DNA of 64,000 nt from Mayamaea pseudoterrestris (lineage: Eukaryota): positions 806,001 to 870,000 of the forward strand of contig BROI01000004.1 of the NCBI GenBank assembly GCA_027923505.1. The letters run 5' to 3'. Both the position numbers and the translations under genes were made by a program. The notes beneath the pieces are model-generated. The model had not been told where the DNA came from. It saw only the letters and a program-made list of their open reading frames with translations, and did not search any database. Below, in pieces: positions 23,687-55,250 of the stretch; within the stretch, counting starts at the first letter, position 1, and each line of letters starts with the position of its first letter.

Positions 23687-24062
23687 CATACAGCGCCGAT
23701 GCAAATCAGGCGCTTGACGAGGCTTCCCTGATGGCCTTTCGCTGCAATGTGCGTGGCTCGTAAATGCACAAAAGTATCAAAGTAATTAGCCTATAGCAAG
23801 ATTTCACCTTAGACTATCACGTCCACTGCCAAGTTGACAATCAATAGATAGATTGAATTGCAGCATGGATGGTGTGATGTATCGTCGCCACATGCTTGTG
23901 CGATCAGATCGCGCGCTGCGCCATTCTGCCGTTGATCGCATCGTGTCGCACCGGTCCATTCAAACCCGCTACGACGAATTTTAAACCGTTCTCTCCCGAG
24001 GAAACGACGAAACGATCGATCGCTCAATCAACAGTCACTTTTTCAAAAAACAAAACAAAACG

Positions 24063-32191: not shown

Positions 32192-33430
32192 GTGACACTG
32201 CTGCTGGCCTGGTTTGGAGGCTACGCATTGGACTTGAAAGTGGGATGGACCTGCCTCATTCAGCAGACACATTGGATTTGAGAGTGGATGGACCTCTGAC
32301 TCATTAGGGGGACAATTAGACTTGAAAATGGGATGGACCTCACTCAACTAGCAAGACACATTGGACTTGAAACTGGATGGATGTCACCCTTTAGCGGGTG
32401 AACACATTGGACTTGAAAAGTGAGATGGACCAAACTTGGACTTGAAAGTGGGAAGGACATGACTCATTCAGCGGGACACATTGGACTTGAAAGTGGGATG
32501 GTCCTCATGTGTTAAGCTAAATACATTGGACTTATAAGTGGATGGATCTCACTTATAATCACGACATTATTTGCTATAATATTACTAGCACAGGATTGCT
32601 CACTTATAGCAAGTTTCTTGCTAGACAGATGTTAATTTCTCATATGACATATGGGATTCCAATGGGTTCTGTATTTTGAAGTTGTAAAAAGTGGGTCAAG
32701 TTGACCTGACGGTCTGTGGCACTGCCCCGCTCCTTGCTTGTGAATGTCGCAGAGAGTAGAGATTGTGACACTGCTGCTGGCCTGGTTTGGAGGTTGCTTA
32801 ATGGACATGAAAGTGGATGGTCACTGATTTAGCATAGTGGATGGACCTCACTCATTTAGCAGGAACACATTGGACTTGAAAGTGGATGGGCCTCACTCAA
32901 GTAGTGGGAACACATTGGACCTGAAAGGGATGCAGGAACACATTGGACTTGAAAATGTGGGAACACATTGGACCTGAAAGGGATGCAGAAACACATTGGA
33001 CTTGAAAATGGATGGGCTGCACTCATTTAGCGGGAACACATTGGACCTGAAAGTAGATGGGCGTCAATCATTTAGCTAACCCCATTGGACTTAAAAAGTG
33101 GACGGTAACTGATTTAGCAGGAACACATTGGACTTGAAAGTGGATGGGCGTCACTCATTTAGCTAACCCCATTGGACTTGAAAAGGATGGACCTCACTCA
33201 TTTTGCGGGAACACATTGGACTTGAAAGTGGACGGTCACTGATTTGGCAGGAACACATTGGACTTAAAAGTGGATGGGTGTCACTCATTTAGCTAACCAC
33301 ATTGGATATGAAAGTGGATGAACCTCACTCATTTAGCGGGAACACATCAATTGGCATTATTAGCACAGGATTGCTCACTTACATAGCATTTTTTTGCGAG
33401 ACAGGTTAGTGTCTCATGTGACATATTGAA
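32192..33430. repeat. Degenerate ~46-47-bp minisatellite (CATTGGACTTGAAAGTGGATGGACCTCACTCATTTAGCGGGAACA) inside a two-copy segmental duplication
   Basis: Around 20 copies of the CATTGGACTTGAAAGTGG core. Shared left flank GTGACACTGCTGCTGGCCTGGTTTGGAGG (32192, 32765) and right flank TAGCACAGGATTGCTCACTTA (~32586, ~33361). Confidence 0.9.
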
Positions 33431-34364
33431 TTCTGACAGGTGCTGCTGCCAACACTATAAATTGTGCAATGGCATATCTCTATGACATGCTCCTATCGTT
33501 TGGTTGTACTGCATGATTGAAGCATGTAAAAGCCTTTGCCTCCTCTCATTGCTGATCCTAGCGCGTCTGACACATGTGCTGGTTTGAATGGAATGGAAGT
33601 GGCATGGAGTATGTTTTAGCATTTTCACTTTGCCACAGAACTTTCAGGCTGATTGTTGACCATATTACAAGAAGGTGAGAGCAGGCAGCGCGTAGATCTG
33701 TGTTGCAATACAGGGAACAAGAAAATTCTCTAATGCTTTTTAGCTTGTGGAGCAAGTACGAGTGTCCACTTGTACATACTACCAGCATAATGATTGTGTT
33801 TCGGAGTATGAGCTCAACATAACTTTCCACCATGTATACATAGGATAGCTATGTACTCTACCAACAAGTTACAACACGTATCATATAATATATCACACCA
33901 CTTACGACCCCAGTCAGAGAGATAATGTCATCGTTAATTGACCTTTCAAACAGTTCAGTCCCCGATGTCCGTATCACGTCCTCGCCCGTAGAGCCAGTAC
34001 TTTCATGCATTACGGCCCTATGACCTGTTCACTCTTGGCCTCGCCGCCACGTGACTCAACATGCCAATGATGTTAAGCCCTTGCGTACCTATTATTTAAC
34101 AAATCGCCTGTCAAAAAAGTACTGTTGTTCTCAATGTACGATTTTACTTATCATGATCGATCGAGGGATGACTTGGCCCGCGCTAGACGAGCTCAAAGCA
34201 CACTGACAGGATGGTTTGGCCCTTGTGCATCTCAAACCGCGAAAGCGCGGCGCAGCGGCCATCGTCTCATTCTTTCGAAGCTGGAAACACAACACAAGTG
34301 CTTATTTCTTTGCTTGATCCAACTTGCAATCGAGAGAATATTTCAAGTCTACTGCGATACCATC

Positions 34365-37300
34365 ATGAAACTCATCAACTGTGCGGCTCTGCTGTCGTTG
34401 ATCGGACAAGCCAATGCCAACTGGTACACTCCAAAGGCTGTTCGTGACTTCGACTCCAAGGAAAGTGACGAAAATCTTGTTGCGTCTCAAGTCAGTCATG
34501 AGGCAGCTCTACTTTCGCCGATCAGTCTGACAAGTTGCGACGATCCTGTCGATATCTGCATTATGGACGACCATCCGGAAGGCGCGTTTCGAAAGTGCTG
34601 GCAGGTACTGGCCGGCAACACGATCTTTGCGGGCACCTTTTGCATTACCACCAACGAGTTTGAAGGAAGCGACACGTTCCACATCACGTTCGATACTACC
34701 GGCAGCGGCTGGTTTCTCGACGAGGCGAGTTTGTGGATTGGCGAGCATGGTACGTTTCCTCAAACCATCAAAGGCTTGCCACGCAGCGACCAATTCCCCG
34801 TTGCGACTGGACGTTTGAGCAAGACGCGACCTACCATCTACACGGCCGAGCTTCCTTTCGAGCACACTGGCGCCGTCGACGGACCATCTGGTAAAGTTTC
34901 GGCTTGCTGTGCAGGATCGGCGCCTGCAGTTTACCAAGTGCTTGCTCATTGTAAAGTTTACAACTCCGAATCCAGTCAAGTTGAGTCAATTTGGGGAAAT
35001 GCGACCGAAATCGGAGCGAACTGGGCGATTGGTGCAAATGTTACGCTTGGTTGTGACTGCGTCTCGTCTTCCACCGCTCACCAGGCGAAACGCAAGCGCA
35101 CCATGGCGAATGTACCAAGCCAGGCCATCACCCAATCCGATCGGAAGCTACAAGAAGGTACGAGCGCAGAGTTGTATGACGACGATCATTGGAATGGCTT
35201 ACATCTTCATTTTACTAACCCATCTCGCACAATAGACGCTGCAGACGTTGGTCAAGATCCAAGTACTTTGACGATGGAAGCCGACGACAACGACCTCGTC
35301 GCTGAAGATCAAGAATTTTTCACGGCGGCCAGGAATAACAACCCTAAGCCTACTAAGCCTCCAACTACTAAGCGTCCAACAGTTGCACCACCCCCGACAA
35401 CAGAACCACCGAAGGGCTGCGACACAGCCTATGCCTACTGCATCAACGCACCTCCTCCAAACGATAACAATCTTCCAGGTTGTTTCTCGGATTACGAAAA
35501 CGATTTAAAAAGCAACAGATGGGGCTGGGTTCATCAAGTTCCACCGAGCAGTTCTAATCCCTTTCCTTCCATCCAGTGCATCCTCTACGCTGGAGCAGGA
35601 CAGTGCGACCTTGATAAAGGCAAGAATGCGGGTACTGCCACGATTGAATCGAACAAGATCAAAATTCAGATGGCTGATGGCTATTCTTTAAGCGAGATCC
35701 ACTTTTATCATGGAACAGATGTCTTTCCAGCGGGCCCAAATGGACGTACTAGTTTGGTTGCCCCAGGACAGTACTCCAAGCCCGGATACGTTGCGACGGT
35801 AAATCCAAAGGAGTGGACGCCCAACAACGCCCCAATACAGCCAGGCGAGTATTTCATTTTGCACACCACAGTATGCGAGTCTAGTGCGGCACCAAGCAAG
35901 ACACCAAGCCGCACACCAAGCAAGACCCCAAGCCGCACACCAAGCAAGACCCCAAGCCGCACGCCAAGCAGGACCCCGAGCCGTACGCCAAGCCGCGGAC
36001 CTTCCCGCACGCCAACGCACAATGATCCAAGCCCCTTTCCTACAACTGAGCCCATGTGCCATTGCTGGTGTCCTTGTACTGAAGGTAAGACAAGGTGGGT
36101 GCTTCATACTCTCCAACTACTTTGTCTTTTCTCACCTTTTGTATATCTAATTTTTAAAGTTCCTTCTGGTGCACCAAGCCCATCTCCTAGTGGCGTGCCC
36201 TCACCGTCTCCAAGCGGTGTGCCAAGCCCATCCCCCAGTGGAGTCCCAAGTCCCTCACCTTCTGGTGTACCAAGCCCATCTCCTAGTGGCGTGCCCTCAC
36301 CGTCTCCAAGCGGTGTGCCAAGCCCATCCCCCAGTGGAGTCCCAAGTCCCTCACCTTCTGGTGTACCAAGCCCATCTCCTAGTGGCGTGCCCTCACCGTC
36401 TCCAAGCGGTGTGCCAAGCCCATCCCCCAGTGGAGTCCCAAGTCCCTCACCTTCTGGTGTACCAAGCCCATCTCCTAGTGGCGTGCCCTCACCGTCTCCA
36501 AGCGGTGTGCCAAGCCCATCCCCCAGTGGAGTCCCAAGTCCCTCACCTTCTGGTGTACCAAGCCCATCTCCTAGTGGCGTGCCCTCACCGTCTCCAAGCG
36601 GTGTGCCAAGCCCATCCCCCAGTGGAGTCCCAAGTCCCTCACCTTCTGGTGTACCAAGCCCATCTCCTAGTGGCGTGCCCTCACCGTCTCCAAGCGGTGT
36701 GCCAAGCCCATCCCCCAGTGGAGTCCCAAGTCCCTCACCTTCTGGTGTACCAAGCCCATCTCCTAGTGGCGTGCCCTCACCGTCTCCAAGCGGTGTGCCA
36801 AGCCCATCCCCCAGTGGAGTCCCAAGTCCCTCACCTTCTGGTGTACCAAGCCCATCTCCTAGTGGCGTGCCCTCACCGTCTCCAAGCGGTGTGCCAAGCC
36901 CATCCCCCAGTGGAGTCCCAAGTCCCTCACCTTCTGGTGTACCAAGCCCATCTCCTAGTGGCGTGCCCTCACCGTCTCCAAGCGGTGTGCCAAGCCCATC
37001 CCCCAGTGGAGTCCCAAGTCCCTCACCTTCTGGTGTACCAAGCCCATCTCCTAGTGGCGTGCCCTCACCGTCTCCAAGCGGTGTGCCAAGCCCATCCCCC
37101 AGTGGAGTCCCAAGTCCCTCACCTTCTGGTGTACCAAGCCCATCTCCTAGTGGCGTGCCCTCACCGTCTCCAAGCGGTGTGCCAAGCCCATCCCCCAGTG
37201 GAGTCCCAAGTCCCTCCCCAGCATCTCCAGTGGCGTCCAGCGGGAGCCCTCCCCGTGGCCCTCCTACCTTCTGGTGTACCAAGCCCATCTCCTAGTGGCG

Positions 37301-40300
37301 TGCCCTCACCGTCTCCAAGCGGTGTGCCAAGCCCATCCCCCAGTGGAGTCCCAAGTCCCTCACCTTCTGGTGTACCAAGCCCATCTCCTAGTGGCGTGCC
37401 CTCACCGTCTCCAAGCGGTGTGCCAAGCCCATCCCCCAGTGGAGTCCCAAGTCCCTCACCTTCTGGTGTACCAAGCCCATCTCCTAGTGGCGTGCCCTCA
37501 CCGTCTCCAAGCGGTGTGCCAAGCCCACTCCCCAGTGGAGTCCCAAGTCCCTCACCTTCTGGTGTACCAAGCCCATCTCCTAGTGGCGTGCCCTCACCGT
37601 CTCCAAGCGGTGTGCCAAGCCCATCCCCCAGTGGAGTCCCAAGTCCCTCACCTTCTGGTGTACCAAGCCCATCTCCTAGTGGCGTGCCCTCACCGTCTCC
37701 AAGCGGTGTGCCAAGCCCATCCCCCCAGTGGAGTCCCAAGTCCCTCACCTTCTGGTGTACCAAGCCCATCTCCTAGTGGCGTGCCCTCACCGTCTCCAAG
37801 CGGTGTGCCAAGCCCATCCCCAGTGGAGTCCCAAGTCCCTCACCTTCTGGTGTACCAAGCCCATCTCCTAGTGGCGTGCCCTCACCGTCTCCAAGCGGTG
37901 TGCCAAGCCCATCCCCCAGTGGAGTCCCAAGTCCCTCACCTTCTGGTGTACCAAGCCCATCTCCTAGTGGCGTGCCCTCACCGTCTCCAAGCGGTGTGCC
38001 AAGCCCATCCCCCAGTGGAGTCCCAAGTCCCTCACCTTCTGGTGTACCAAGCCCATCTCCTAGTGGCGTGCCCTCACCGTCTCCAAGCGGTGTGCCAAGC
38101 CCATCCCCCAGTGGAGTCCCAAGTCCCTCACCTTCTGGTGTACCAAGCCCATCTCCTAGTGGCGTGCCCTCACCGTCTCCAAGCGGTGTGCCAAGCCCAT
38201 CCCCCAGTGGAGTCCCAAGTCCCTCACCTTCTGGTGTACCAAGCCCATCTCCTAGTGGCGTGCCCTCACCGTCTCCAAGCGGTGTGCCAAGCCCATCCCC
38301 CAGTGGAGTCCCAAGTCCCTCACCTTCTGGTGTACCAAGCCCATCTCCTAGTGGCGTGCCCTCACCGTCTCCAAGCGGTGTGCCAAGCCCATCCCCCAGT
38401 GGAGTCCCAAGTCCCGCTCCTTCTGGTGTACCAAGCCCATCTCCTAGTGGCGTGCCCTCACCGTCTCCAAGCGGTGTGCCAAGCCCATCCCCCAGTGGAG
38501 TCCCAAGTCCCTCACCTTCTGGTGTACCAAGCCCATCTCCTAGTGGCGTGCCCTCACCGTCTCCAAGCGGTGTGCCAAGCCCATCCCCAGTGGAGTCCCA
38601 AGTCCCTCACCTTCTGGTGTACCAAGCCCATCTCCTAGTGGCGTGCCCTCACCGTCTCCAAGCGGTGTGCCAAGCCCATCCCCCAGTGGAGTCCCAAGTC
38701 CCTCACCTTCTGGTGTACCAAGCCCATCTCCTAGTGGCGTGCCCTCACCGTCTCCAAGCGGTGTGCCAAGCCCATCCCCCAGTGGAGTCCCAAGTCCCTC
38801 ACCTTCTGGTGTACCAAGCCCATCTCCTAGTGGCGTGCCCTCACCATCTCCAAGCGGTGTGCCAAGCCCATCCCCCAGTGGAGTCCCAAGTCCCTCACCT
38901 TCTGGTGTACCAAGCCCATCTCCTAGTGGCGTGCCCTCACCGTCTCCAAGCGGTGTGCCAAGCCCATCCCCCAGTGGAGTCCCAAGTCCCTCACCTTCTG
39001 GTGTACCAAGCCCATCTCCTAGTGGCGTGCCCTCACCGTCTCCAAGCGGTGTGCCAAGCCCATCCCCCAGTGGAGTCCCAAGTCCCTCACCTTCTGGTGT
39101 ACCAAGCCCATCTCCTAGTGGCGTGCCCTCACCGTCTCCAAGCGGTGTGCCAAGCCCATCCCCCAGTGGAGTCCCAAGTCCCTCACCTTCTGGTGTACCA
39201 AGCCCATCTCCTAGTGGCGTGCCCTCACCGTCTCCAAGCGGTGTGCCAAGCCCATCCCCCAGTGGAGTCCCAAGTCCCTCACCTTCTGGTGTACCAAGCC
39301 CATCTCCTAGTGGCGTGCCCTCACCGTCTCCAAGCGGTGTGCCAAGCCCATCCCCCAGTGGAGTCCCAAGTCCCTCACCTTCTGGTGTACCAAGCCCATC
39401 TCCTAGTGGCGTGCCCTCACCGTCTCCAAGCGGTGTGCCAAGCCCATCCCCCAGTGGAGTCCCAAGTCCCTCACCTTCTGGTGTACCAAGCCCATCTCCT
39501 AGTGGCGTGCCCTCACCGTCTCCAAGCGGTGTGCCAAGCCCATCCCCCAGTGGAGTCCCAAGTCCCTCACCTTCTGGTGTACCAAGCCCATCTCCTAGTG
39601 GCGTGCCCTCACCGTCTCCAAGCGGTGTGCCAAGCCCATCCCCCAGTGGAGTCCCAAGTCCCTCACCTTCTGGTGTACCAAGCCCATCTCCTAGTGGCGT
39701 GCCCTCACCGTCTCCAAGCGGTGTGCCAAGCCCATCCCCCAGTGGAGTCCCAAGTCCCTCACCTTCTGGTGTACCAAGCCCATCTCCTAGTGGCGTGCCC
39801 TCACCGTCTCCAAGCGGTGTGCCAAGCCCATCCCCCAGTGGAGTCCCAAGTCCCTCACCTTCTGGTGTACCAAGCCCATCTCCTAGTGGCGTGCCCTCAC
39901 CGTCTCCAAGCGGTGTGCCAAGCCCATCCCCCAGTGGAGTCCCAAGTCCCTCACCTTCTGGTGTACCAAGCCCATCTCCTAGTGGCGTGCCCTCCCAGTG
40001 GAGTCCCTCCCACCCAAGCGGTGTGCCAAGCCCATCCCCCAGTGGAGTCCCAAGTCCCTCACCTTCTGGTGTACCAAGCCCATCTCCTAGTGGCGTGCCC
40101 TCACCGTCTCCCAAGCCTTTCTGGTGTACAAGCCATTGAAGCCCATCCCCCAGTGGAGTCCCAAGTCCCTCACCTTCTGGTGTACCAAGCCCATCTCCTA
40201 GTGGCGTGCCCTCACCGTCTCCAAGCGGTGTGCCAAGCCCATCCCCCAGTGGAGTCCCAAGTCCCTCACCTTCTGGTGTACCAAGCCCATCTCCTAGTGG

Positions 40301-43300
40301 CGTGCCCTCACCGTCTCCAAGCGGTGTGCCAAGCCCATCCCCCAGTGGAGTCCCAAGTCCCTCACCTTCTGGTGTACCAAGCCCATCTCCTAGTGGCGTG
40401 CCCTCACCGTCTCCAAGCGGTGTGCCAAGCCCATCCCCCAGTGGAGTCCCAAGTCCCTCACCTTCTGGTGTACCAAGCCCATCTCCTAGTGGCGTGCCCT
40501 CACCGTCTCCAAGCGGTGTGCCAAGCCCATCCCCCAGTGGAGTCCCAAGTCCCTCACCTTCTGGTGTACCAAGCCCATCTCCTAGTGGCGTGCCCTCACC
40601 GTCTCCAAGCGGTGTGCCAAGCCCATCCCCAGTGGAGTCCCAAGTCCCTCACCTTCTGGTGTACCAAGCCCATCTCCTAGTGGCGTGCCCTCACCGTCTC
40701 CAAGCGGTGTGCCAAGCCCATCCCCCAGTGGAGTCCCAAGTCCCTCACCTTCTGGTGTACCAAGCCCATCTCCTAGTGGCGTGCCCTCACCGTCTCCAAG
40801 CGGTGTGCCAAGCCCATCCCCCCAGTGGAGTCCCAAGTCCCTCACCTTCTGGTGTACCAAGCCCATCCCCCAGTGGGGTGTACCAAGCCCATCCCCCAGT
40901 GGAGTCCCAAGTCCCTCACCTTCTGGTGTACCAAGCCCATCTCCTAGTGGCGTGCCCTCACCGTCTCCAAGCGGTGTGCCAAGCCCATCCCCCAGTGGAG
41001 TCCCAAGTCCCTCACCTTCTGGTGTACCAAGCCCATCTCCTAGTGGCGTGCCCTCACCGTCTCCAAGCGGTGTGCCAAGCCCATCCCCCAGTGGAGTCCC
41101 AAGTCCCTCACCTTCTGGTGTACCAAGCCCATCTCCTAGTGGCGTGCCCTCACCGTCTCCAAGCGGTGTGCCAAGCCCATCCCCCAGTGGAGTCCCAAGT
41201 CCCTCACCTTCTGGTGTACCAAGCCCATCTCCTAGTGGCGTGCCCTCACCGTCTCCAAGCGGTGTGCCAAGCCCATCCCCCAGTGGAGTCCCAAGTCCCT
41301 CACCTTCTGGTGTACCAAGCCCATCTCCTAGTGGCGTGCCCTCACCGTCTCCAAGCGGTGTGCCAAGCCCATCCCCAGTGGAGTCCCAAGTCCCTCACCT
41401 TCTGGTGTACCAAGCCCATCTCCTAGTGGCGTGCCCTCACCGTCTCCAAGCGGTGTGCCAAGCCCATCCCCCAGTGGAGTCCCAAGTCCCTCACCTTCTG
41501 GTGTACCAAGCCCATCTCCTAGTGGCGTGCCCTCACCGTCTCCAAGCGGTGTGCCAAGCCCATCCCCCAGTGGAGTCCCAAGTCCCTCACCTTCTGGTGT
41601 ACCAAGCCCATCTCCTAGTGGCGTGCCCTCACATCTCCAAGCGGTGTGGGTGTGCCAAGCCCATCCCCAGTGGAGTCCCAAGTCCCTCACCTTCTGGTGT
41701 ACCAAGCCCATCTCCTAGTGGCGTGCCCTCACCGTCTCCAAGCGGTGTGCCAAGCCCTCCCCGTGGGCCGCCCCGTGTACCAAGCCCATCCCCCTCAGTG
41801 GAGGTGTCCCAAGTCCCTCACCTTCTGGTGTACCAAGCCCATCTCCTAGTGGCGTGCCCTCACCGTCTCCAAGCGGTGTGCCAAGCCCATCCCCCAGTGG
41901 AGTCCCAAGTCCCTCACCTTCTGGTGTACCAAGCCCATCTCCTAGTGGCGTGCCCTCACCGTCTCCAAGCGGTGTGCCAAGCCCATCCCCCAGTGGAGTC
42001 CCAAGTCCCTCACCTTCTGGTGTACCAAGCCCATCTCCTAGTGGCGTGCCCTCACCGTCTCCAAGCGGTGTGCCAAGCCCATCCCCCAGTGGAGTCCCAA
42101 GTCCCTCACCTTCTGGTGTACCAAGCCCATCTCCTAGTGGCGTGCCCTCACCGTCTCCAAGCGGTGTGCCAAGCCCATCCCCCAGTGGAGTCCCAAGTCC
42201 CTCACCTTCTGGTGTACCAAGCCCATCTCCTAGTGGCGTGCCCTCACCGTCTCCAAGCGGTGTGCCAAGCCCATCCCCCAGTGGAGTCCCAAGTCCCTCA
42301 CCTTCTGGTGTACCAAGCCCATCTCCTAGTGGCGTGCCCTCACCGTCTCCAAGCGGTGTGCCAAGCCCATCCCCCAGTGGAGTCCCAAGTCCCTCACCTT
42401 CTGGTGTACCAAGCCCATCTCCTAGTGGCGTGCCCTCACCGTCTCCAAGCGGTGTGCCAAGCCCATCCCCCAGTGGAGTCCCAAGTCCCTCACCTTCTGG
42501 TGTACCAAGCCCATCTCCTAGTGGCGTGCCCTCACCGTCTCCAAGCGGTGTGCCAAGCCCATCCCCCAGTGGAGTCCCAAGTCCCTCACCTTCTGGTGTA
42601 CCAAGCCCATCTCCTAGTGGCGTGCCCTCACCGTCTCCAAGCGGTGTGCCAAGCCCATCCCCCAGTGGAGTCCCAAGTCCCTCACCTTCTGGTGTACCAA
42701 GCCCATCTCCTAGTGGCGTGCCCTCACCGTCTCCAAGCGGTGTGCCAAGCCCATCCCCCAGTGGAGTCCCAAGTCCCTCACCTTCTGGTGTACCAAGCCC
42801 ATCTCCTAGTGGCGTGCCCTCACCGTCTCCAAGCGGTGTGCCAAGCCCATCCCCCAGTGGAGTCCCAAGTCCCTCACCTTCTGGTGTACCAAGCCCATCT
42901 CCTAGTGGCGTGCCCTCACCGTCTCCAAGCGGTGTGCCAAGCCCATCCCCCAGTGGAGTCCCAAGTCCCTCACCTTCTGGTGTACCAAGCCCATCTCCTA
43001 GTGGCGTGCCCTCACCGTCTCCAAGCGGTGTGCCAAGCCCATCCCCCAGTGGAGTCCCAAGTCCCTCACCTTCTGGTGTACCAAGCCCATCTCCTAGTGG
43101 CGTGCCCTCACCGTCTCCAAGCGGTGTGCCAAGCCCATCCCCCAGTGGAGTCCCAAGTCCCTCACCTTCTGGTGTACCAAGCCCATCTCCTAGTGGCGTG
43201 CCCTCACCGTCTCCAAGCGGTGTGCCAAGCCCATCCCCCAGTGGAGTCCCAAGTCCCTCACCTTCTGGTGTACCAAGCCCATCTCCTAGTGGCGTGCCCT

Positions 43301-45386
43301 CACCGTCTCCAAGCGGTGTGCCAAGCCCATCCCCCAGTGGAGTCCCAAGTCCCTCACCTTCTGGTGTACCAAGCCCATCTCCTAGTGGCGTGCCCTCACC
43401 GTCTCCAAGCGGTGTGCCAAGCCCATCCCCCAGTGGAGTCCCAAGTCCCTCACCTTCTGGTGTACCAAGCCCATCTCCTAGTGGCGTGCCCTCACCGTCT
43501 CCAAGCGGTGTGCCAAGCCCATCCCCCAGTGGAGTCCCAAGTCCCTCACCTTCTGGTGTACCAAGCCCATCTCCTAGTGGCGTGCCCTCACCGTCTCCAA
43601 GCGGTGTGCCAAGCCCATCCCCAGTGGAGTCCCAAGTCCCTCACCTTCTGGTGTACCAAGCCCATCTCCTAGTGGCGTGCCCTCACCGTCTCCAAGCGGT
43701 GTGCCAAGCCCATCCCCCAGTGGAGTCCCAAGTCCCTCACCTTCTGGTGTACCAAGCCCATCTCCTAGTGGCGTGCCCTCACCGTCTCCAAGCGGTGTGC
43801 CAAGCCCATCCCCCAGTGGAGTCCCAAGTCCCTCACCTTCTGGTGTACCAAGCCCATCTCCTAGTGGCGTGCCCTCACCGTCTCCAAGCGGTGTGCCAAG
43901 CCCATCCCCCAGTGGAGTCCCAAGTCCCTCACCTTCCCGCACACCAAGCCGGACGCCTTCCCGTACACCAAGCCGGACACCTTCCCGTACACCAAGCCGG
44001 ACACCTTCCCGTACACCAAGCCGGACACCTTCCCGCACACCAAGCAGGTCTCCAAGCCGTACGCCTTCTCGCACACCTTCCCGCACCCCGAGCCGTACAC
44101 CAAGCCGCACTCCGAGTCGTACGCCCTCTCGCACTCCGAGTGCATGTCCAACCCCTCCATCCAATTGTGAAACCGCGTTTGCATACTGTACGCAATCGGT
44201 GTGTCCCAGCTCGCATGGAAGCACACCAGTTGCTATTCAGCCAAGATGTTTTTCGGAACTTCCGGTAACTCGCTGGGGTTGGTTCCATGTTCTGACCGCA
44301 GATGTTCAGTTTCCTTTTGAAATTCAGTGTGCGCTTTATGCTGGAGCAGCACAGTGCGATCGAAGCAAGGGAACATATGTTGGAACTGCAACAATAACCC
44401 CAACTACGTTCAACATTGACATGAGCCCTGGATGGTCATTGAGTGAAGTCCATTTCTATCATGGAACTGATCCAAAGTCTGTTGCCCAGTCCCCAGGCCA
44501 ATACTCTACTCAGACCTTTTTACCATCAGGCTCTCCTTGGACTCTTGATAAACCTGTCATTAAAACAGGTGAATCATTTATTCTGCACACTAAAACATGC
44601 CCAGTCCCTATAACCAGTCCTCCCAAGAAAAGCCCAACGTCAGCACCAAAGACGTACCCGACGCCCACAAACACGTACCCGACGCCCACAAACACGTACC
44701 CGACGCCCACAAACACGTACCCGACGCCCACAAACACGTACCCGACGCCCACAAACACGTACCCGACGCCCACAAACACGTACCCGACGCCCACAAATAC
44801 GTACCCGACGCCAACAAACACGTACCCGACGCCCACAAACACGTATCCAACACCTACAAACACATATCCTACACCCACGGCCCCTGCTGGTCCACCATGC
44901 GACCCGGATCAATGTGCTGACCTATTGTACCTCAACTCTAAAGGAAAATACAAGGCTGCAGGAAAAGTTTGCTCTGAAATTACTGATAAAGATACTGTCA
45001 AGGTCACATACAAGACAAGTGGAACTGATTACTGTCTCATGAAGCTGCATGCCAACATTGGAGCTATACCCCGTGATCCAAACACCAATGAAATCAAACT
45101 GGGCCAATTCGATGTAAGCTTCAATTCCAACATCAATCCAAAACAACTCAACATGGGAAATTGTTTGAAACAATACACTTTCAAAATCAAACTCCCTAAT
45201 ACATGCGCTGCAGGCAGTACTGTCACGAAAGCACTGGCCGCGCGAGCCTTTATGCAAAATGTCAACGGCAACGCTGCCCAAGATGAAGTGATTGCCTGGA
45301 GTGATGGCGAAGCACTCGTTCCCGCTGACCCAACCGGCGCAATGAGGACTCAGCTAGCACTTCCTTGCTCTTGCCCGAAAGCGTAA
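34365..45386 (+). CDS. Giant secreted Pro/Ser/Thr-rich (mucin/extensin-like) protein, ~3,600 aa; intron 36085-36159; frame breaks inside the array are likely consensus errors
   Basis: Signal peptide [21 protein letters not shown] (RXL) site; two copies of a Cys-rich WGW...LYAGAxQCD...EIHFYHG...PGQYS...FILHT..C domain flank the (PSPSPSGV)n array; SRTP and TYPTPTN repeats; Cys-rich C-terminal domain. Confidence 0.85.
36161..43937 (+). repeat. Coding tandem array: 96-bp higher-order unit (4 x 24 bp) encoding PSPSPSGV, ~81 units
   Basis: Unit CCTTCTGGTGTACCAAGCCCATCTCCTAGTGGCGTGCCCTCACCGTCTCCAAGCGGTGTGCCAAGCCCATCCCCCAGTGGAGTCCCAAGTCCCTCA is repeated almost invariantly. Confidence 0.98.
44652..44880 (+). 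repeat. 21-bp coding repeat (TYPTPTN)x~11
   Basis: Tandem copies of ACGTACCCGACGCCCACAAAC. Confidence 0.95.
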
Positions 45387-45749: not shown

Positions 45750-46697
45750 ATGAAGGTGCGACATGCAATCGTGTTGATGAGGCTATTTGGGGAGTCGCGT
45801 CCGCAAAACGTTACGCATGCGTCGGTTGTCGTTGCCGGAGTGGTGTTGCGCTAATGCACCTGTACCTCTTGCGTTTTGATACACCATGTGCGCACTCGTT
45901 TATTTTATGAAAATTGTAACTTACTCTGCTTCCTGTTGTTTTACAATTGACAGATCAATATTGCATGCCCGTCGACTGGCATGCAAAAGATTATGGAGAT
46001 TGACGATGAACGTCGTCTCCAGAATCTCTACGACCGCCGCATGGCCCAGGAAATTGATGGAAAGATCCTCGGAGAAGAATTCGATGGCTCCATTCTTCGA
46101 ATCTCTGGAGGAAACGACAAGCAGGGCTTTCCCATGCGTCAGGGTGTCTTGACCAACACTCGCGTCCGTCTTCTCTGCAAGAAGGGCCACAAGGCGTTCC
46201 GACCCCGCCGCGCCGGAGAGCGCAAGCGCAAGTCGGTGCGTGGATGCATTGTTGGATCCGACATTTCCGTCCTCAACTTGGTGGTTGTCCAGGCTCCGGC
46301 GGACAAGCCCATTGTTGGCTTGACCGACGACACTGTTCCACGTCGCCTTGGCCCCAAGCGCGCGAGCAACATTCGCAAGCTGTTCAACCTTACCAAGGAA
46401 GACGATGTGCGCAAGTATGTGATTGCCCGTGTCTTTACCAACAAGAAGGGAGTCACGGTCCGCAAGGCGCCCAAGATTCAGCGATTGGTGACTCCGCTGA
46501 CGCTTCAGCGCAAGCGCGCCAGAAAGGCCGAGAAGATTAACAACTTGAAGCACAGCAAGGAGGAGGCTGCTGCCTACAAGAAGGTTCTGGCGCAACGCTT
46601 GGCCGAGCAAAAGGAGCAGAAGCGCTCGCTCATTAGCAAGCGAAGATCTAGTCGCAAGAGTGCGAAAATGACGGCAGAGCAAGCTGCGCAGAAATAA
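45750..46697 (+). CDS. RPS6: 40S ribosomal protein S6 (eS6); intron 45756-45953 after MK
   Basis: [14 protein letters not shown]...[16 protein letters not shown]...[11 protein letters not shown]...[10 protein letters not shown]...[11 protein letters not shown]. Confidence 0.98.
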
Positions 46698-49649
46698 GGA
46701 AACAACTTAACGATAAGGGAGCTCGTTTACTATACCATACGAACTGTGTTATTCTCGTGTAGCTGTTTGTTTACTTATAGTCATTCAATCTCTTTCAAGT
46801 GCCGAACGACAGGATTTTCGCTCGTAATGCTCATCCCGGTGGAGAAGGCTACCGTTTACGAAAGCTAGCTGGCGCGCTGTGAATCTCTTGGAACAATTTG
46901 CAAATCACGTCATCCAACAAGATGAATGGCAAGTGCTTGTCATTCTTATACTGTCAAGTGCAATTGAAAAGTAGCGAGGTGTTGATGTTAGATTTGTCGC
47001 GCTGAGTAGCTTCGATGCTACCAGAGCGTATGGGTGGACGGTAAGCTCACCATCATGATCATTGAGCATAGAGGCGTCCACATCGCGCTTGCTCCTCGTC
47101 CCCGACAGCGTCGCCAGCCACAAGCAGCATCACACTTGTAATAACAAGTCAAGGTTGTTTTCGCCAGCAATACCAGTAGTCGGCAGACTTGGCAACACTT
47201 GCAGTTGCAAAAATGACGACCATGGTCGTTCAGCGCGCTCATACATCATCGGTTTCCGTGTCAACGATACACGGCAATGGCATTTTAGCAAGATCGCTTT
47301 AATTTAAATCACAGTCAGTGCTACCCATGCTGTTCATGAAGCATCAGGCGGCAGTCAGATGCTGCTACCTTTCAATGACAAAGCTCACTAGCTTTTATGG
47401 TACCGGTATGTGAGGCTATGTTCCTGGTGGGGCGCCACGTACCATTGTCGGCATGTCATTTGTTCGCGAACGCGGCAGAGCCAGCGCATCGAGCTGACGA
47501 CATTATTGCAAGTCGATCATAGGGCTTGAATATCCACGTAATCATAAAATTCTACCCTTGTCACAGAGCATTGCGGTCGGAATGATGCAGATGCAAACGT
47601 GTCCGGCCACAAGCAAAAGGTACCCATCATTGTTCCTTCATTCGGCCCGTCCCTGACAACTCCCGCCATCCTTATACATCCTGATATGCTGGGCCTCGGC
47701 AGCTTGGCGCTGTGCATCATTCTCCTGCAATCTATAAATAGGCTCCTCCGCACCTCATCCAGTTGTGTAAGTAGACCATATAGAAGTTCCATCAAGACCT
47801 GTTTCACAATAAAGTCGCAAGCGCTCCATACGCTCGTTGTTGGGTTGTTGGCGCGAGCTCCCATTGAGCACGACTATCGGCGTACCTACCTGGGCATGTA
47901 GATCTAGGACTAGAGGCGCTTATTCGGGAATTGAGTCTCAAGCGCTCTGCGCGCTCGATCTCGGCCTGCTGACGCGCCTCTTCGAGCTGTCGAGCAAGCG
48001 CCTCGGTCCACTGACATTGACTACACAGTTTTTTGCTAGCGTTTCAGAACGTCTATCTTGCTCTCCGAGCGGTCGATCAAGCATCTGGGTCTGCTCGCGT
48101 TGGTACTTGAGTATTTGATCAGGCTGCTGACAAAGTTGTAGATAACTCGGACTTGCATAGCAGAAATAATGGCTTGGAGAGTTTTACGACACTCTTGCTG
48201 GTAGGCGCATATGGCCCGGAGCTCAACTAACGATGCTTCTGTGTCTGTCTTGGTGTTCCTGGGTTCGCGGCTTTTGCAAAGTATGAATGTAGGCCCGACA
48301 AATTTTAAAGTGATCATCCGGACGATAAGTTGCAACCAGGACGAGAGAACTGCGAGGACCACAGATTGGGGCGGACCGAGTAGAGGGTGCTCTCAGAGTA
48401 AAGGACTATTCTGAGTTCGAAGAAAGCCAACGTGGCGTCAGAGATTGCCAACAAGAGTCTTAACTGAACATAGCCGCATTGATCTTCTTTATCGGCTTCG
48501 TTCCTATCGATTTCCGGAGAAAGGCTCTCGCGGCTTCAAATGTGATTAGCTTATTGTCGATAGTTGCAGCTCCAGCCATTGTCCCTAGTCCTTTAATAAA
48601 TCTCAGATGATATGGCCACCTTGCAGGAACGTTCGCGGAAGAGAAGAAATACAATGACAAAAATTCTTCAGAAAGGAATATTTTCCAACTGAGCCTACAA
48701 GGCATTGGACGGCCGATGTACCATGTCTCCGTCAAAAACGAGATAACTTGTTTTATCCCAGAAACGAGATAACTTGTTTTATCCCAGATTTCCGTCGCGA
48801 AATGCAATATTTCCAAAGGCAAACTCGACTAGCGCAACATGTTGGTCTTGCAGGGGAACAATTTGATTGCGACGCAAAGAGTTGCGCATCAGCATCAACA
48901 TGGCGAGCAACGTCCAAGTGCATTCGCGGAATCGTACGAGTAGCGGCTTGAAGCTCTAGGCCAACCGCGATATAATCATCCCCGTCGCATTAATTGAAGC
49001 GACCAGGTATAAAATCAACAAGCGGACAAGAAACCGAGAAACCCATGTGAATCAAAAAAGACTTTCAATTGGGTTGTCAGTGGAACAAGGCTGAGACAAA
49101 GTCTCTCCGGCGCACGAAATTCGTAATACTGGGGCATTGTTCCTTCCATTGTGCTTCTCGTCATCGACGTCAAAAAACACTACAACGTCCTCGTCTCGTC
49201 ACGCATAGTCTCGCAGCACGATGCATGATCATGGTCGAATGGTGGCACAAATAATGGATCTTTGCACCTTTGTGCGAAACCAGTGAGACATTTTTAATTT
49301 TTAATACCGATACGATTTTAATGATGAAGGATTTCGGCGACGATTCATCCTCGCACACGATACACTATGACCACAGCCACAACCACGGAGCCTTTCGATT
49401 CATCCGGACTTGCTGATTACCTACTTTTCTGGTGATTCACTGTTTATTTATGCTCGCTCCAGCGTGACGCCATTGAATTGTCGATGCCCAACGACATCGG
49501 GCTCCTACAAGTGCTCGAAAGTCGGACGCTTTCACTACTGATAGTTTATGCTCTCGTATTGTTGTGACATATTGAGCTTTACTATAAAAAAAATCTTAGC
49601 TCGGCCATGGAATTATTCACATGTTCCATAAGCAGTTCTTCTACGTTGT

Positions 49650-49967
49650 TTACTCTTCTCTTCTATCTTCGTCTTCTTTTTCCTCCACCTCCTCTTGGTC
49701 TTCTTCTTCTTTTTCTTCTTCTTCCTCCGTCTCCCCCTCCTTTTCGTCGGACTTCGTCACTCGTGTAGTGACAACGGCGCTGGGAGCCAATCCTTTGGCG
49801 GACATGCTACGAGTCTGGATCGGCTCGCGAGCAGCTTCGGTGGCAGCGCGCTTCGTGTTGCGAGCGGTTGGCTCGGCACGACGTACGGGCGCAAGCGCAA
49901 AATGGTTGTACCCTCTCTTAGAAGGACCTCCAGTGCTCATGCGAGCTGTTCTCTTGGTACGGGCCAT
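49650..49967 (-). CDS. Small histone H3-tail-like protein (105 aa) with Met at the K9 position, no histone fold, acidic C-terminus
   Basis: ATG in a CAACAAGTCATC-ATG-GCC context; MARTKRTARMSTGG versus H3 MARTKQTARKSTGG (12/14 identical); poly-Glu tail. Confidence 0.65.
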   Translation of the reverse strand: MARTKRTARMSTGGPSKRGYNHFALAPVRRAEPTARNTKRAATEAAREPIQTRSMSAKGLAPSAVVTTRVTKSDEKEGETEEEEEKEEEDQEEVEEKEDEDRREE

Positions 49968-50464
49968 GATGACTTGTTGATGGTGTAATGGGCGGGCGAC
50001 GATCCTTGTTTGGTGTGCCGCAAAATCCAACTGGCATAGTCGTGATGCCGTTGCATGTTCCGTGACTTCGGAATTCACAGTCAAACAAAAGCATCCGGGG
50101 TGCAAGCTGACTGGAACAGATGCGGTTCGCACGACTGAAATCCTATCTCTGGAATCGTACTGGCACTCGCGCCTTCCCTTGTTGGATTTCATCTTCGCAC
50201 GCAACGACCACAACCACAAAGTCTTTCAAAAGGCAATTGAAATTACTGCATGAGTAGTTTACGTATAATAGATGAAGAAGCAGCATTGAGAGGTTGCAAA
50301 ACTCATGCGAACTTTGGTTCGGCTCCTGCTCGAAAGGAGGTGCGCCGCGCACCGTCGGTTGGTGCGGCTAAAACGAAATTCCTTGACACTCGTGAACCGT
50401 TGGCGCACCGACATTGATGCAGACTGACAAGCAGCAAACATGATGGCATTATAAGTCGCGTGTT

Positions 50465-51478
50465 ATGATGAAGTGCTTGTCGTTTTCCACCTCCCTTGCT
50501 GCAGTCGCGCTGCTGCTTGTTGCGTCTTGTTTCGTGGAAGGATTACATGCTCAGCAGCTTGATGCAGAGGCTCACCATGCTATGGAACAGAAACATGAGC
50601 ATCGATCACTTGGAGACTCGAGCTGGAGCTTTGCAAATATGATGTGTAAGTCTGTTTGTGTGCACCTGCACGTCAATCATAAATCCAGCTTGTCTCAGTA
50701 GTCTCTCGTTCTATACATTCCGTTTTCATCAATAGACCACCTCCATGCTTGTCCACCGCCAGCTCACTGTCCCGGAGGACCTATCGTCAGTCCTCTCCAC
50801 CCATGTGGATGCCCCGACTGCTCCAAGCCGCATCCAAACGATCCAGCTTTCGCGCATGGTTACTGCTACGTTGCATCGTCAAGCAGCGAGTCTTCCTACG
50901 AGGAGGCAACGTCTTCCTACAATTCCACGGAAAGTTTACAAGAAGAAGAAACGGCGCAGAATGGAGCTGCTTCCAACTCGTCGGCCAATTGGATGTTTAG
51001 TCCGCTCTACTACGTGATTGGTGGAGCAGTCCTTGCCGTTGGAGCAGCGGCGGTGATCATGCGACAACGCAACAACAAGACTAGCAACGAATTATTGCTT
51101 GACGACGACGAACACGACGGCAGCAACAACAACAACATGTTGAGCAGCTTGTCGCGGCGCGTCGGTTTGCTAGCAGCGGCTGGTACGGCTGGTGTTGCGG
51201 CAGCCATTGGCTTTGCGGGACGACGAAACAAGCATTATCGATCCGACGCAAGCCTTGGAGACTTGTCGGGCAGTGTCGGCCGGAGAATGCGATCCGTTGA
51301 AACGGGGGGTGACGCTTCGTCTCCTTACTATTGTCGAGAAGAGGAAGTGCCTCCCATGTTTGTCAATGTTCCGGACAAGGGAACTTATTCGCCCGACCCA
51401 ACCTTGGTGGAGCATCCGGAATCAGTGGAAGTGGAAGGCCCGTACCGGCCATCTTCGTATTACTCTGCTTGCGTCTAA
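50465..51478 (+). CDS. Single-pass secretory-pathway protein, silicalemma-associated-protein (SAP)-like architecture; intron 50646-50735
   Basis: Signal peptide, RSL (RXL) motif, Cys/His/Pro-rich then Ser/Glu-rich luminal part, TM YVIGGAVLAVGAAAVIM, cytosolic LSGSVGRRM motif; the intron restores the frame. Confidence 0.7.
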
Positions 51479-51686
51479 GGAAAATTGATGCTTGTTGGCA
51501 ATGTAATATTATGTAACTCTGTATTATTTAAAAAAAGAAAAGGAATGGAACTACAACGTTGTTGGCAAGCTACTGGAGTAATATTCAAATTGAATTCTCG
51601 TTAGCACACCTCAGTGCACTAGCCGCACTATTCTTCGACGTAAAGAAACCGTCGACTTCAGTGTAGCGTTCAAATAAGCTACTGTA

Positions 51687-53545
51687 CTACTTAAGACCAC
51701 TCACGCTCGTTTCGCAAATTTCTGGAGCATGTTCTGCTTTATCCAAGCCATTCACCGTCTTTGCATTATCCCCTCCCTCAGTCTCGTCCAACCAGTCAAT
51801 GAACAAAAGAGGAATTAGCGAGCTAACATTGCAGACAACCGTCAGCCATGCCCTGTCGTAGAGTGAGGAAAAGTGTGTAAGCTTACAGTAGCCTCCATCC
51901 ACCAACAACCCTCGAACCATGCATGGAGCACTCACAAGTTGTCAAAATTGTCGCCTGTTATACCGGCCATCTTTGTCAATAGCGCTCCAAGCTCCGTCCC
52001 TAATGTTCCAGCAGCATTGTTAATGGACATGAGCGTTGCAAACAGCACCGCCTCGATGCCAGGCGGGCATAGTCGAGCCGCCAAGACGAGTGTTGGCATG
52101 AAGGAGATCTGTCCAAGCGCTGCCAGCGCAGCATCGTCCCCAAAGATGAGTGCAGTATCCGGAATGCCTAGCGCGCGGTTAACGTGGGTAATGAGCAAGA
52201 CAGGAAGCATGCCAAGTGGAAAGGATGCGAGCGTGCACCAAAACAGCACATTCTTAATGGATGCCGTTTTCAAATAAGTTTGATATAAAAATACTCCCAC
52301 AAGGCCTGCTCCTGCAGTGAGTAGCCGCACGCGACCAAGAAATTCTGGACCTAGACCAAGGTCGTTGGAAAGAAAGAAGAAAAATGCACCATCGGCCGTT
52401 GGAGTGGCTTGCCAAAGAAAGATGAAAGCAGCTGGTTTGTAAATTGATGGCTTCCGAAGAGCCGACCAAAGTAGATCAAGCTGCTCCTGCATTCCTTGAC
52501 TCTTAGTACTGCCCGTTTCGATAGATGCCTCATCAGCGCGTGTTGCTGCTACGGAACTGTCATTGTTCTCGTCAACTGCAGCATTTCTGTCCTTTTGTTC
52601 GTTCACTCCAAACGAAATGGCCGCCACCAGAAACGGCAAGACGGCTGTAATGCCAAATACGTTTCTCACGCTCAGCACTTCCAATAGCGATCCGCTATAG
52701 TAGGCTGAGAGAATACTTCCCGCACTAGCCGCGCCCCAGCAGAGGCTCTGCAATCCGCCCGCCACCTTGTCATCGTTGGCATACTTTTGCGTCTCCTGCA
52801 CTACAATGCCGTCGGCGACAACGTCACTCATAGCGATGCATGCGCTCGCAAGCGTCAACGCAATGACTGTGCCAGTCATAGCTGTCGAAGCATCGAGCGA
52901 ATCCCACACCAAATCGGTTCCAAGTAGCAAGTAGCAAACTCCGGCCAATAATCCAGCGACAATGAGGTAACTCTTGCGTCTATATCCAAACAGCTTGTAT
53001 CCATCCGAAAGGAATCCATATAGCGGTTTAATGGTCCATGGCAAACTAAAGAGTCCAGTCAGTCCACTAAGCTCGGCTGGTCCCAGGTGTAACGTGTCTT
53101 TCAAAAGGTAGGTTTGTGCTAGCCGTGCCAGTCCAAGGGCCCCTTGAACAAAGTAGATGGTCACAATGGCAGCAAGTTCTGGAGACGGATCAATCCCCAA
53201 TAATATCTTGTCTTTTAAAAATGATGTCACTAGTGAAGGTGACTTTGTAGAGTCTTCGTCGACATTGGGAGACGAAGAAGGATCGGCTAGAAGGAGGCGT
53301 GTTGTCGAGGAAAATACTGCAGGCTCATGTCGCTCTGCAGCTCGATGATGACAGTTTCGCAGTAAGCTTGGCCTTATGAATGCATCTGTATAAGTAAGGT
53401 AGAGTAGAATCAATGAAATTTGTAGATATAACCAACTTAGTCGCTGCGAACAAACCGCCATTGCCAAGAAAGTGGTCTGCCGAAGAATTTGTGAGGATCG
53501 CGCGGGCGAGATTTCCGAAGAGGTCGGACCGGTACTCACTTCCAT
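51687..53545 (-). CDS. Folate-biopterin transporter (BT1/FBT, MFS), probably plastid-targeted; intron 51853-51935
   Basis: IYFVQGALGLARLA, LPWTIKPLYGFLSD, LQSLCWG, FMPTLVLAARLCPPGIEAVLFATLMS; start could be MAVC at ~53461. Confidence 0.93.
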
Positions 53546-53702
53546 TCAAAAGTTCAAAAGCGCGCGACGAAGCAAGATCGAATTCAAGATTGATCTCACA
53601 TGTCTTGATGCTAGAGTACTCAGCCAAACCATTTTCATCGAACTACCGGTAAACATCGTCATCGGGTCAAACAAGTGACGCTTTTCGTGTGCTCTTCAAA
53701 GC

Positions 53703-55250
53703 ATGGACACTAATCTGAGTGACAGCGGCCACCCGCTTGATTCCAAGGAACACCTTCAAGACTACGGCTTTTCCGAGTCAAACTGTCAAAAATGTGGCGT
53801 CCACAACAGTGAGATCAATGGGCTCTTGATGCAATGCGGTAAAGTGAGTTTATACCTTCTTGTGTGCATGTGTGAAACTACTTGTTATGTGGCACTATAG
53901 TGCCTTCCTATAGGAAGCACGGAAGCACACCTCCGCTCACTCGTCCATGCTGTCTGACAGTGCAAGAAAGCATATTACTGCTCGATGAAATGCTTTAATG
54001 AAGGTAAGTCATGCATATGACTGATATTCTTAAACTCACCCTGCTAAGGTTCTCACGATTACGACTGGCTGCCAGATTTACCAAACCACCAAAAATTTTG
54101 CTTGACGAACAGCATAAGAAAGGAGCCGGAACGTCGCGACGAAGAGCAGATCATTTTTGACAAAACAAAAGAGGAAGCAGACAGATTAAAAAGGGAGGCA
54201 GAGGCTGAAGCTGCTAAGAAACGTTGCGAAGAAGAGGAAAGGAAAAAGTTAAAGGCCGAAGCGGACGCGCGTCGGATGCAGGAGGAACAGGAGCGCGAAG
54301 GGAATGAGCAGCAACGCCGAGCCGAGGAGGAACGAGCTAGACTGGCTGCCGATGCAAAGCGTCGTGAAGAGGAAGAGCGTGCTCGAGTTGAAGCGTTGCG
54401 TCAGGCAGATGAAGAAAAACGGGCTTGTGCGAGAGAGAAGGAATGTCGACGTGAGGAGGAAGAAAAGGCTCGGCTTGAAGCTCTTTGCTTAGCTGAACAA
54501 GCAAGGTTGGCGCGCCTGGTAGAGGAGCAACGTCGTTTAGATGAAGAGAAAGCTCGGGTGGAGGTGTTGCGAAAAGTCGAAGAAGCGAGGCGGACTCGCG
54601 AGTTGGAAGAGCAGCGTCGACTCGAAGAAGAGAAAGCTCGGATGGACGCGTTGCGACAAGTCGAAGAAGAACGAAAGGCTCGCGAGTTGGAGGATCGCCG
54701 TCGTTGTGAGGCCGCTGAAAAAGCTAGACTCGAGATACTGCGTCGAGAAGAAGAAAGGGTTCGACGAGAAGTTATGGCTGAACGAGCGCGAGAAGCGGAG
54801 CACGCTCGAGTCGCTGCTGCCGAGGAAGCACGCCAACTCGCTGAAGAGCTAGAGCTTTTGGAGCTTGAATGCAAACGGCGTGAAGAAGCCGAACGAGAGC
54901 GGCAAAAGGAGGAAGCCGCTCGGAAGAAAGCGGAGGAAAAGGAAGCACGTTTAGTGAATGCGCGGCAACTTGCCGAGGAGCAGAGGCAAAAGACGATAAA
55001 GATTCGTCGTGATGGTGCATACATACATTGGCAGCGACTGAATCGACCGACTCGCGACAAGATGAAGGAAACTCTACATTCATTAGGCGACACAAGCGTG
55101 ACTGTGGACGACGCTGATTTGCTTCCATGGATGCCTCATAATCGTACCGTAGACATTCGCGAGATGAACAAGAATGCGGTTGAAGGAGATGGTTTTTGGG
55201 GAACTATTAAAGAGGAGACCGTTATTCTCGACAATGCTAATAATCGGTAG
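53703..55250 (+). CDS. MYND zinc-finger protein with a long E/R-rich charged helix; introns 53844-53960 and 54004-54075
   Basis: Spliced CQKC...QCGK|CKKAYYCSMKCFNE|DLPNHQKFC; E/R/A-rich helix; C-terminal DLLPW domain. Confidence 0.85.

Follow-up and report, generated by a model that had tools for sequence, protein, structure and literature searches.

A 64,000-nucleotide stretch of the genome of the diatom Mayamaea pseudoterrestris (contig BROI01000004.1, positions 806,001 to 870,000; hereafter the window) contains a minus-strand open reading frame (ORF), P0001, whose 105-residue product opens with a copy of the histone H3 tail in which lysine 9 is replaced by methionine (K9M). Our preferred reading, to which we assign a probability of about 0.4, is that P0001 encodes an orphan disordered protein that would act as a soluble K9M pseudo-substrate for SUV39/G9a-type enzymes. 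Lysine-to-methionine (K-to-M) histone changes are familiar as cancer mutations and laboratory tools. To our knowledge, EZHIP, which is directed against PRC2 in placental mammals, is the one accepted natural K-to-M mimic. If the reading is true, cells use K-to-M chemistry to tune H3K9 methylation, the transposon-silencing mark, and P0001 would provide a compact handle on heterochromatin regulation in a major marine algal group, with one 105-residue protein and one Met-to-Lys control. The parts of P0001 are as follows.

49650-49967, minus strand: P0001, an uninterrupted reading frame of 105 codons plus stop.
49926-49964, minus strand: codons 2-14, equal to H3 residues 1-13 with Q5R and K9M, by comparison with H3 chains from the PDB.
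49938-49940, minus strand: ATG codon at the H3 K9 position, read from the sequence.
49752-49925, minus strand: residues 15-72, a basic unstructured middle with no significant likeness to H3 or other proteins (alignments, searches and AlphaFold2, AF2).
49653-49751, minus strand: residues 73-105, an acidic tail with 23 aspartates or glutamates (D/E) among 33 residues and one predicted helix (composition, AF2).
49654-49724, no strand assigned: imperfect (TCTTCT)n under the acidic tail (period 6, 11.8 copies, 73% matches).
49741-49994, no strand assigned: low-depth contigs of two RNA runs over P0001 (run X5, 49741-49994; run X3, 49741-49956).

Residues 2-14 of P0001 stand in register with H3 1-13 right behind the initiator methionine and are identical to it at 11 of 13 positions. 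Around Met9, T6 to G13 are the same as in H3 apart from the methionine itself, and a proline stands at the position of K14. The start codon has A at -3 and G at +4. An initiator methionine is cleaved when the second residue is small (the methionine aminopeptidase rule), and the start of P0001, M-A-R-T-K, fits by its sequence the criteria for H3 tail mimics (H3TMs), namely a removable initiator Met, R2 and K4. The 105-residue protein is identical to a called gene already on record, as found by protein search. When residues 1-75 were compared with the PDB (phmmer), 73 sequences scored at E ≤ 10 and the best 60 of these 73 were all H3-family chains or peptides, the best one at E 0.12 (16.2 bits), with the identities falling in residues 1-14. 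The initial annotation, made from the letters alone, had described this ORF with its Q5R and K9M (ATG) changes and its missing K14, all of which are present in the sequence. A pattern search that it had also suggested, carried out within the window, found the H3-like start single: the degenerate DNA pattern, with position 9 free and up to two mismatches, had one match in the 64 kb on both strands and none in 100 dinucleotide shuffles.

The methionine codon does not appear to be a sequencing error. Sequencing runs listed for 49560-50060 numbered 22, of which five held at least half of the sampled words, and four of these were compared over 47000-54500. The N-terminal codons of P0001 had no differing letter in the contigs of all four runs, though assembled contigs can hide rare variants, and the codon at position 9, which the initial annotation had wished checked for AAG, was ATG in each. 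Runs X1 (possibly the source sample) and X2 gave one long contig each across the region, differing from the window only at 51309 and 52658 (G>A and T>C), both outside P0001. Two further runs, X3 and X5, are of unrecorded type, and the GT..AG joints in their contigs (50645/50736, 53843/53961 and 54001/54074) led us to treat them as RNA. Their contigs over P0001 have depths of 4.0 (X3) and 2.3 (X5), carry no differing letter, and extend, one by 45 and the other by 104 letters, into the (TCTTCT)n tract, which reads GAA/GAG on the coding strand and was masked as repeat in this comparison. The P0001 ORF is transcribed at a low level, as seen in these two low-depth runs from one study.

Eleven genes of the window with Pfam support served as the reference for scoring codon usage. 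The whole ORF scored 0.221 per codon, close to the gene means (0.219 for 58-codon windows to 0.225 for 72- and 105-codon windows) and above the mean of 65 intergenic ORFs (-0.029, standard deviation 0.096); this high value derives from the acidic tail, an imperfect GAA microsatellite. Residues 1-72 scored 0.082 and residues 15-72 scored 0.074, for which the 5th percentiles of the genes are 0.066 (72 codons) and 0.001 (58 codons). Coding support for the middle part of P0001 is equivocal.

Behind its start P0001 is neither a histone nor a recognizable remnant of one. The absence of the histone fold, which in H3 comprises three helices at about residues 45-135, and the acidic C-terminal tract, both described by the initial annotation, hold: Pfam gave no family above noise and no PF00125 for P0001, no histone family was found by Pfam in 10 stop-free pieces from all three minus-strand frames of 49200-49936, and H3 fold motifs were absent from the six frames of the 64-kb window. 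In the AF2 single-sequence model most of the chain is coil and helices occupy 35-45 and 77-104; the predicted template modelling score (pTM) is 0.26. Charge is divided sharply along the protein, with 16 lysines or arginines (K/R) and 3 D/E in residues 1-72 and 5 K/R and 23 D/E in residues 73-105.

The boundary of the H3 likeness was located using five full-length H3 proteins, read from loci found in this analysis, as H3 stand-ins. Scores of P0001 residues 15-72 against residues 15-45 of the stand-ins were equalled by 116, 225, 29, 186 and 352 of 500 shuffles, and those against residue 46 to the C-terminus by 223, 154, 267, 275 and 367 of 500; for residues 15-105 against the latter part, 240 to 449 of 500 shuffles did as well. 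Given that the residues beyond 14 align no better than shuffles, homology to H3, as judged by alignment, reaches no further than about codon 14. A second stretch that the initial annotation had aligned with H3 18-27, KRAATEAARE, is there to the letter, but its alignment does not rise above shuffles, and HMMER placed the second H3-like stretch of P0001 in another register, equally weak. We also considered a decayed whole H3 gene, with an in-frame 'ERA-stop' near 49459 as its 3' end, and rejected it because the motif is at chance level (roughly two matches expected per window, a rough estimate) and the frames between hold no H3 likeness.

Protein searches with P0001 returned no relative of its body. 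A near-length search found P0001 itself alone among 12 candidates (5.8 billion proteins), and none of 161 candidates scored in a longer-length search. HMMER over 1.84 billion representative proteins gave three matches at E ≤ 0.001, i.e., P0001, P0002 and P0003; the last two were rejected as relatives, being internally repeated proteins in which weak scores add up. An Atlas look-alike (score 0.79) fell under the meaningful level and was likewise set aside.

The H3(1-13)K9M start itself was found in other eukaryotic DNA. A scan of metagenome contigs for the exact H3-like start with Met at position 9 detected 13 loci (L001-L013). Nine are whole H3 genes with the fold, encoding six distinct proteins (L001/L003/L008/L011, L002, L007, L009, L010 and L012), and the other four are fold-less and represent two genes, L004/L005/L006 (100 residues) and L013 (137 residues). 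A profile built from the first 40 residues of P0001, L004 and L013 was then compared with proteins of 71-2000 residues, and nine of 254 candidates scored at E ≤ 10.

P0001: the window protein itself.
P0004 and P0006: the L004 body; in P0006, K14-A15-P16 is retained and R8 is replaced by L.
P0005 and P0007: the L013 body; in P0007, T3 is replaced by Q and the start was called 11 residues further upstream.
P0008: the Met-9 start ahead of a BTB/POZ domain that scored 29.4 bits (cut-off 20.5).
P0010: a fold-less protein in which residue 9 is R.
P0009 and P0011: whole H3 with Met-9, PF00125 on record.

Beyond their common start, the five groups without a fold are mutually unrelated, with between-group scores equalled by 14 to 291 of 300 shuffles, while the within-group z of the fold-less bodies was 44 to 70. 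By these comparisons the H3(1-13)K9M start heads three further unrelated fold-less bodies (L004-L006/P0004/P0006, L013/P0005/P0007 and P0008), and this recurrence would strengthen the case that cells use K-to-M chemistry on H3K9 methylation. Codons 2-17 of P0001 and L004 encode the same residue at 15 of 16 positions, and eight codons differ synonymously, including two switches between serine codon families. The 5' flanks of P0001 and five other Met-9 loci showed no likeness by eye in a six-sequence alignment. The L004/L005/L006 group was read as cellular, not viral, because a proteasome-beta-like gene (read by eye from the translation) adjoins L006. L013 and P0007 are 76% identical; their 17-residue start differs at one residue and keeps the Met, and within this group the start is conserved no better than the best part of the body.

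Several further observations concern these genes. P0008 has 150 residues and lies on four Logan contigs. The AF2 model of the L013 group has a predicted local distance difference test score (pLDDT) of 73, three short helices, a long helix and a disordered tail, and it had no PDB match at E ≤ 0.001. An F-box-like nature of the L004 and L013 bodies was rejected, as Pfam had no F-box at E ≤ 10 and the hhalign match was carried by the shared start. Whole H3 with Met-9 and an intact fold was seen in at least six environmental eukaryote genes plus P0009 and P0011, and, judging from these genes, the K9M 'oncohistone' change exists as a normal whole-H3 gene in some protists.

Viral contigs served as a rough control. 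The Met-9 tail scan found no locus there. With position 9 left free, 37 loci were detected, and the residue at that position was K in 33, R in two, H in one, A in one and M in none. Fold motifs follow the start in 35 of the 37; one further ORF runs off its contig, and one is a complete fold-less ORF (L030, from position 701, 145 residues) carrying H3 tail residues 1-22 unaltered, K9 included, ahead of acidic tracts and, behind these, strongly basic ones. In layout L030 resembles P0001. Two of eight distinct Met-9 metagenome genes are fold-less, against one of 36 complete viral H3-like starts (different collections and small numbers), a suggestive indication that Met-9 starts are more often fold-less than viral H3-like starts. 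When viral contigs were scanned for the Met-9 core with a looser pattern, four loci came up, all with T at position 10 and in non-H3 contexts, which we judged by eye to be chance matches. Three viral loci (L016, L018 and L041) are giant-virus-type whole H3 genes with Met at the K27 position (A-R-M).

Known biochemistry suggests how such a protein might work. An H3 tail with K9M is reported to bind the SET domains of Clr4 and G9a more strongly, in a manner dependent on SAM (S-adenosylmethionine), and a free K9M peptide to inhibit Clr4 on nucleosomes (PMC5030085). In the G9a-H3K9M-SAM crystal described in the same paper, peptide residues 3-12 are ordered and the Met lies in the lysine pocket, and the H3 copy of P0001 (1-13, ending at G13) spans this ordered stretch; S10 phosphorylation or S10D is said there to weaken K9M binding (PMC5030085). 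A model diatom is described as having both H3K9me2/3 and an enzyme of the SuVar family, and it is chiefly on transposable elements (TEs) that these marks lie there (PMC4504042). P0001 reproduces the enzyme-bound stretch together with the free N-terminus, and in this copy R8, S10 and T11 are retained while Met stands in for K9; P0001 therefore could be a soluble pseudo-substrate.

In this scheme P0001 would be a small, transcribed, lineage-restricted gene with an intrinsically disordered product. Removal of the initiator Met, with Ala next, would expose a free H3 1-13 N-terminus carrying R5 and M9, behind which lie a basic linker and then the acidic tail. The Met9 side chain would enter the lysine channel of a SUV39/G9a/Clr4-type SET domain together with SAM and hold the enzyme, so that H3K9 methylation would be lowered, comparable to the action of EZHIP on PRC2 through a K27M-like peptide. 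With R8, S10 and T11 kept, the decoy may be switchable at S10; without K14, trapping, if any, would be of a simple competitive kind. We infer a nuclear location, SET binding, an effect on chromatin and some role for the acidic tail, and histone binding by that tail is pure conjecture. P0001 may belong to a class of fold-less 'H3 tail K9M' proteins that is polyphyletic and has recurred.

Several results weigh against the pseudo-substrate reading. The body of P0001 is an orphan, with no relative in the protein searches. RNA depth over the ORF is just 2-4, and contigs of X3 and X5 also lie on nearby ORF-free DNA (47000-47632 and 48841-49239), so transcription neither singles out P0001 nor proves a gene. 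Residues 1-72, at 0.082, score below one antisense frame of P0001 (0.130). As for the comparative evidence, the invariance of the start in L004 and L013 was imposed by the search pattern and the profile favours Met; the profile matches vary (R8L in P0006, T3Q in P0007, R at position 9 in P0010), and the reading frames of P0004 and P0006 differ after residue 67-69. The four Met-9 groups lack K14, P0006 excepted, and in fission yeast K14 ubiquitylation is reported to potentiate the trapping of Clr4 by K9M (PMC8167812), by analogy with which trapping by P0001 may be weak.

Much of this would equally be expected of a young chimera, the main rival to the decoy reading, in which a 5' piece of an H3 gene (the start with about 14 codons, perhaps with its promoter) came to read into non-coding DNA and a GAA microsatellite, yielding a weakly transcribed ORF in which K9M is incidental and has no selected function. 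The orphan body, the weak codon signal of the middle with its better antisense frame, the low RNA depth, like the cover on the ORF-free flanks, and the looseness of the L004-group relatives (R8L and the frame change) all fit such an origin, as do the sharp stop of the H3 likeness after codon 14, as at a junction, and a tail built of an imperfect hexamer repeat. It accounts less readily for the intact ORF with a good start context, for the absence of an H4 partner and of any histone-fold remnant near P0001, and for the recurrence of the rare combination of K9M and fold loss on at least three other unrelated bodies, although the last is subject to ascertainment bias. Synonymous differences from L004 at eight of the 15 conserved codons speak against it too, but would also be expected if each species had copied its own H3. 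We regard this chimera as possible, if doubtful. Were it correct, P0001 would still document histone 5' ends seeding new ORFs.

A decoy or adaptor for histone readers is quite unlikely. Here the free A1-R2-T3-K4 would engage PHD, Tudor or WD40 readers, chaperones or importins that act on the H3 tail, in the manner of animal H3 N-terminal mimicry proteins, and Met9 and Pro14 would make the protein blind to K9 and K14 marks. P0001 keeps A1, R2, T3 and K4 and its initiator Met is removable by rule, in agreement with the rules described for PHD engagement in H3 N-terminal mimicry (Met removal, R2 and K4; PMC8166343), and tail copies without Met exist in the fold-less P0010 (R at position 9) and the viral L030 (K). 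Such a role would leave unexplained why the copy reaches G13, past the needs of a PHD finger, and why Met, rather than just any non-methylatable residue, stands at position 9 in four groups (a search-biased count); fission yeast chromodomains, moreover, are reported not to bind the K9M peptide (PMC5030085).

It is more improbable still that the unit is mis-drawn, i.e., that the transcript is non-coding or starts upstream and uses the out-of-frame ORF 49918-50094 or an in-frame ATG near 50190, leaving the H3-like stretch internal or untranslated: the frame is open upstream to 50219, a 58-codon ORF from 50094 overlaps it, P0007 was called with an upstream start, and ORF length alone is within chance (about 0.7 such open frames expected per window, a rough estimate), but 50012-50513 has no cover in either RNA run, the X5 contig ends at 49994 and no other ATG follows down to 49967, which hints, weakly, at a transcript beginning near the ORF, and the exact register of the H3 copy behind the ATG would be hard to account for were that ATG unused.

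Returning to the pseudo-substrate reading, the idea of a decoy inhibitor of H3K9 methylation, which was already proposed in the initial annotation, is plausible and now has comparative backing: it gained from the same start on three unrelated bodies and from the fit to the G9a-bound peptide, and lost from the orphan body, the weak coding statistics and a second H3 stretch that proved insignificant. A more far-reaching version, which we consider unlikely as a whole, holds that microbial eukaryotes repeatedly built natural H3(1-13)K9M 'oncohistone mimics', set at the free N-terminus of unrelated proteins, that would trap H3K9 methyltransferases, with P0001 as a diatom regulator of heterochromatin and TEs and the K9 counterpart of EZHIP. 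The bodies, i.e., the acidic tail (P0001), BTB (P0008) and a small helical domain with a coiled coil (L013 group), would then decide the fate of the enzyme, which might be titrated, relocated or, with BTB, handed to a cullin ligase. The whole H3 K9M proteins of other protists would be the nucleosomal counterpart of these mimics.

Eukaryotic genes of ordinary kinds lie densely across the window, and the introns seen span 72-117 bases. These introns are in keeping with a diatom, as is the nearest Atlas cluster to the BT1 transporter of the window, which is commonest in Bacillariophyta. The genes on either side of P0001 include the following.

45981-46694: ribosomal protein S6e (Pfam).
50465-51478, plus strand: divergent neighbour gene encoding a small signal-peptide and membrane protein, with an intron at 50646-50735 (90 bases) and no Pfam family.
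51935-53545: BT1 transporter (Pfam).

The divergent neighbour is not histone H4. Other genes of the window encode a cyclin, GINS Psf2, an HhH-GPD glycosylase, DnaJ and cold-shock-domain proteins. P0001 had been placed by the initial annotation in a gene-poor stretch, which is true locally, as 46.7-49.65 kb has no ORF of more than 120 residues, but the surrounding genes are ordinary. The suggested transposon origin or linkage found no support: none of nine ORFs flanking P0001 matched a TE family, and 46500-51500 has no inverted or terminal repeats and no long direct repeats, the direct repeats there being of microsatellite type only. Low-depth RNA contigs lie at 47000-47632, 48369-48531 and 48841-49239, in DNA without ORFs of more than 120 residues, and may represent unannotated transcripts or untranslated regions.

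Three other features of the window were recorded. At 36162-43936, within overlapping plus-strand ORFs (34125-45386), a 96-base unit is repeated in tandem about 80 times (96-99% matches), each unit reading as four PSGVPSPS octads; this is a very large gene for a Pro/Ser-rich repeat protein, or an array, and matches no Pfam family. A short tandem array at 33000-33347 has nested periods of 44, 87 and 130 bases. At 22658-23704 (minus strand) a Methyltransf_16 gene (E 2.9e-23) encodes a lysine methyltransferase of the seven-beta-strand type, which is not SET and has no evident tie to P0001.

EZHIP (CXorf67) is among the closest known systems. Like P0001, it is described as a non-histone, largely unstructured protein with a histone-like peptide that has Met at the target lysine, and its peptide as sitting in the methyltransferase active site of PRC2 (PMC6513997). 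EZHIP mimics K27 through an internal, loosely H3-like peptide, whereas P0001 would mimic K9 through an N-terminal one that is in register and identical at 11 of 13 positions; EZHIP is reported to be eutherian-specific (PMC12842176) and P0001 is a diatom protein. Inhibition is demonstrated for EZHIP and would be a prediction for P0001. The likeness between the two would be functional only; P0001 matched no Pfam family and no homologue in the protein searches. In the H3TMs (VRK1 and others; Chen et al. 2021, PMC8166343), the processed N-terminus is described as imitating A1-R2-T3-K4 and can engage H3K4 readers; these share the first few residues only, whereas P0001 copies 13 and has Met at K9. 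The viral L030 also carries the tail on a fold-less protein; P0001, by contrast, lies among intron-bearing housekeeping genes. Whole H3 Met-9 variants share the start of P0001 but keep the fold and would enter nucleosomes, which P0001 cannot. In the literature covered, which left out supplementary files and included few subscription journals, no natural K9M tail was found, and the Met-9 peptide appeared in two papers, only as a synthetic reagent. Synthetic K9M peptides have the same eight-residue core around Met9 as P0001, and engineered or oncogenic H3K9M is either whole nucleosomal H3 or a synthetic peptide, whereas P0001 is natural and fold-less, with R5 and no K14.

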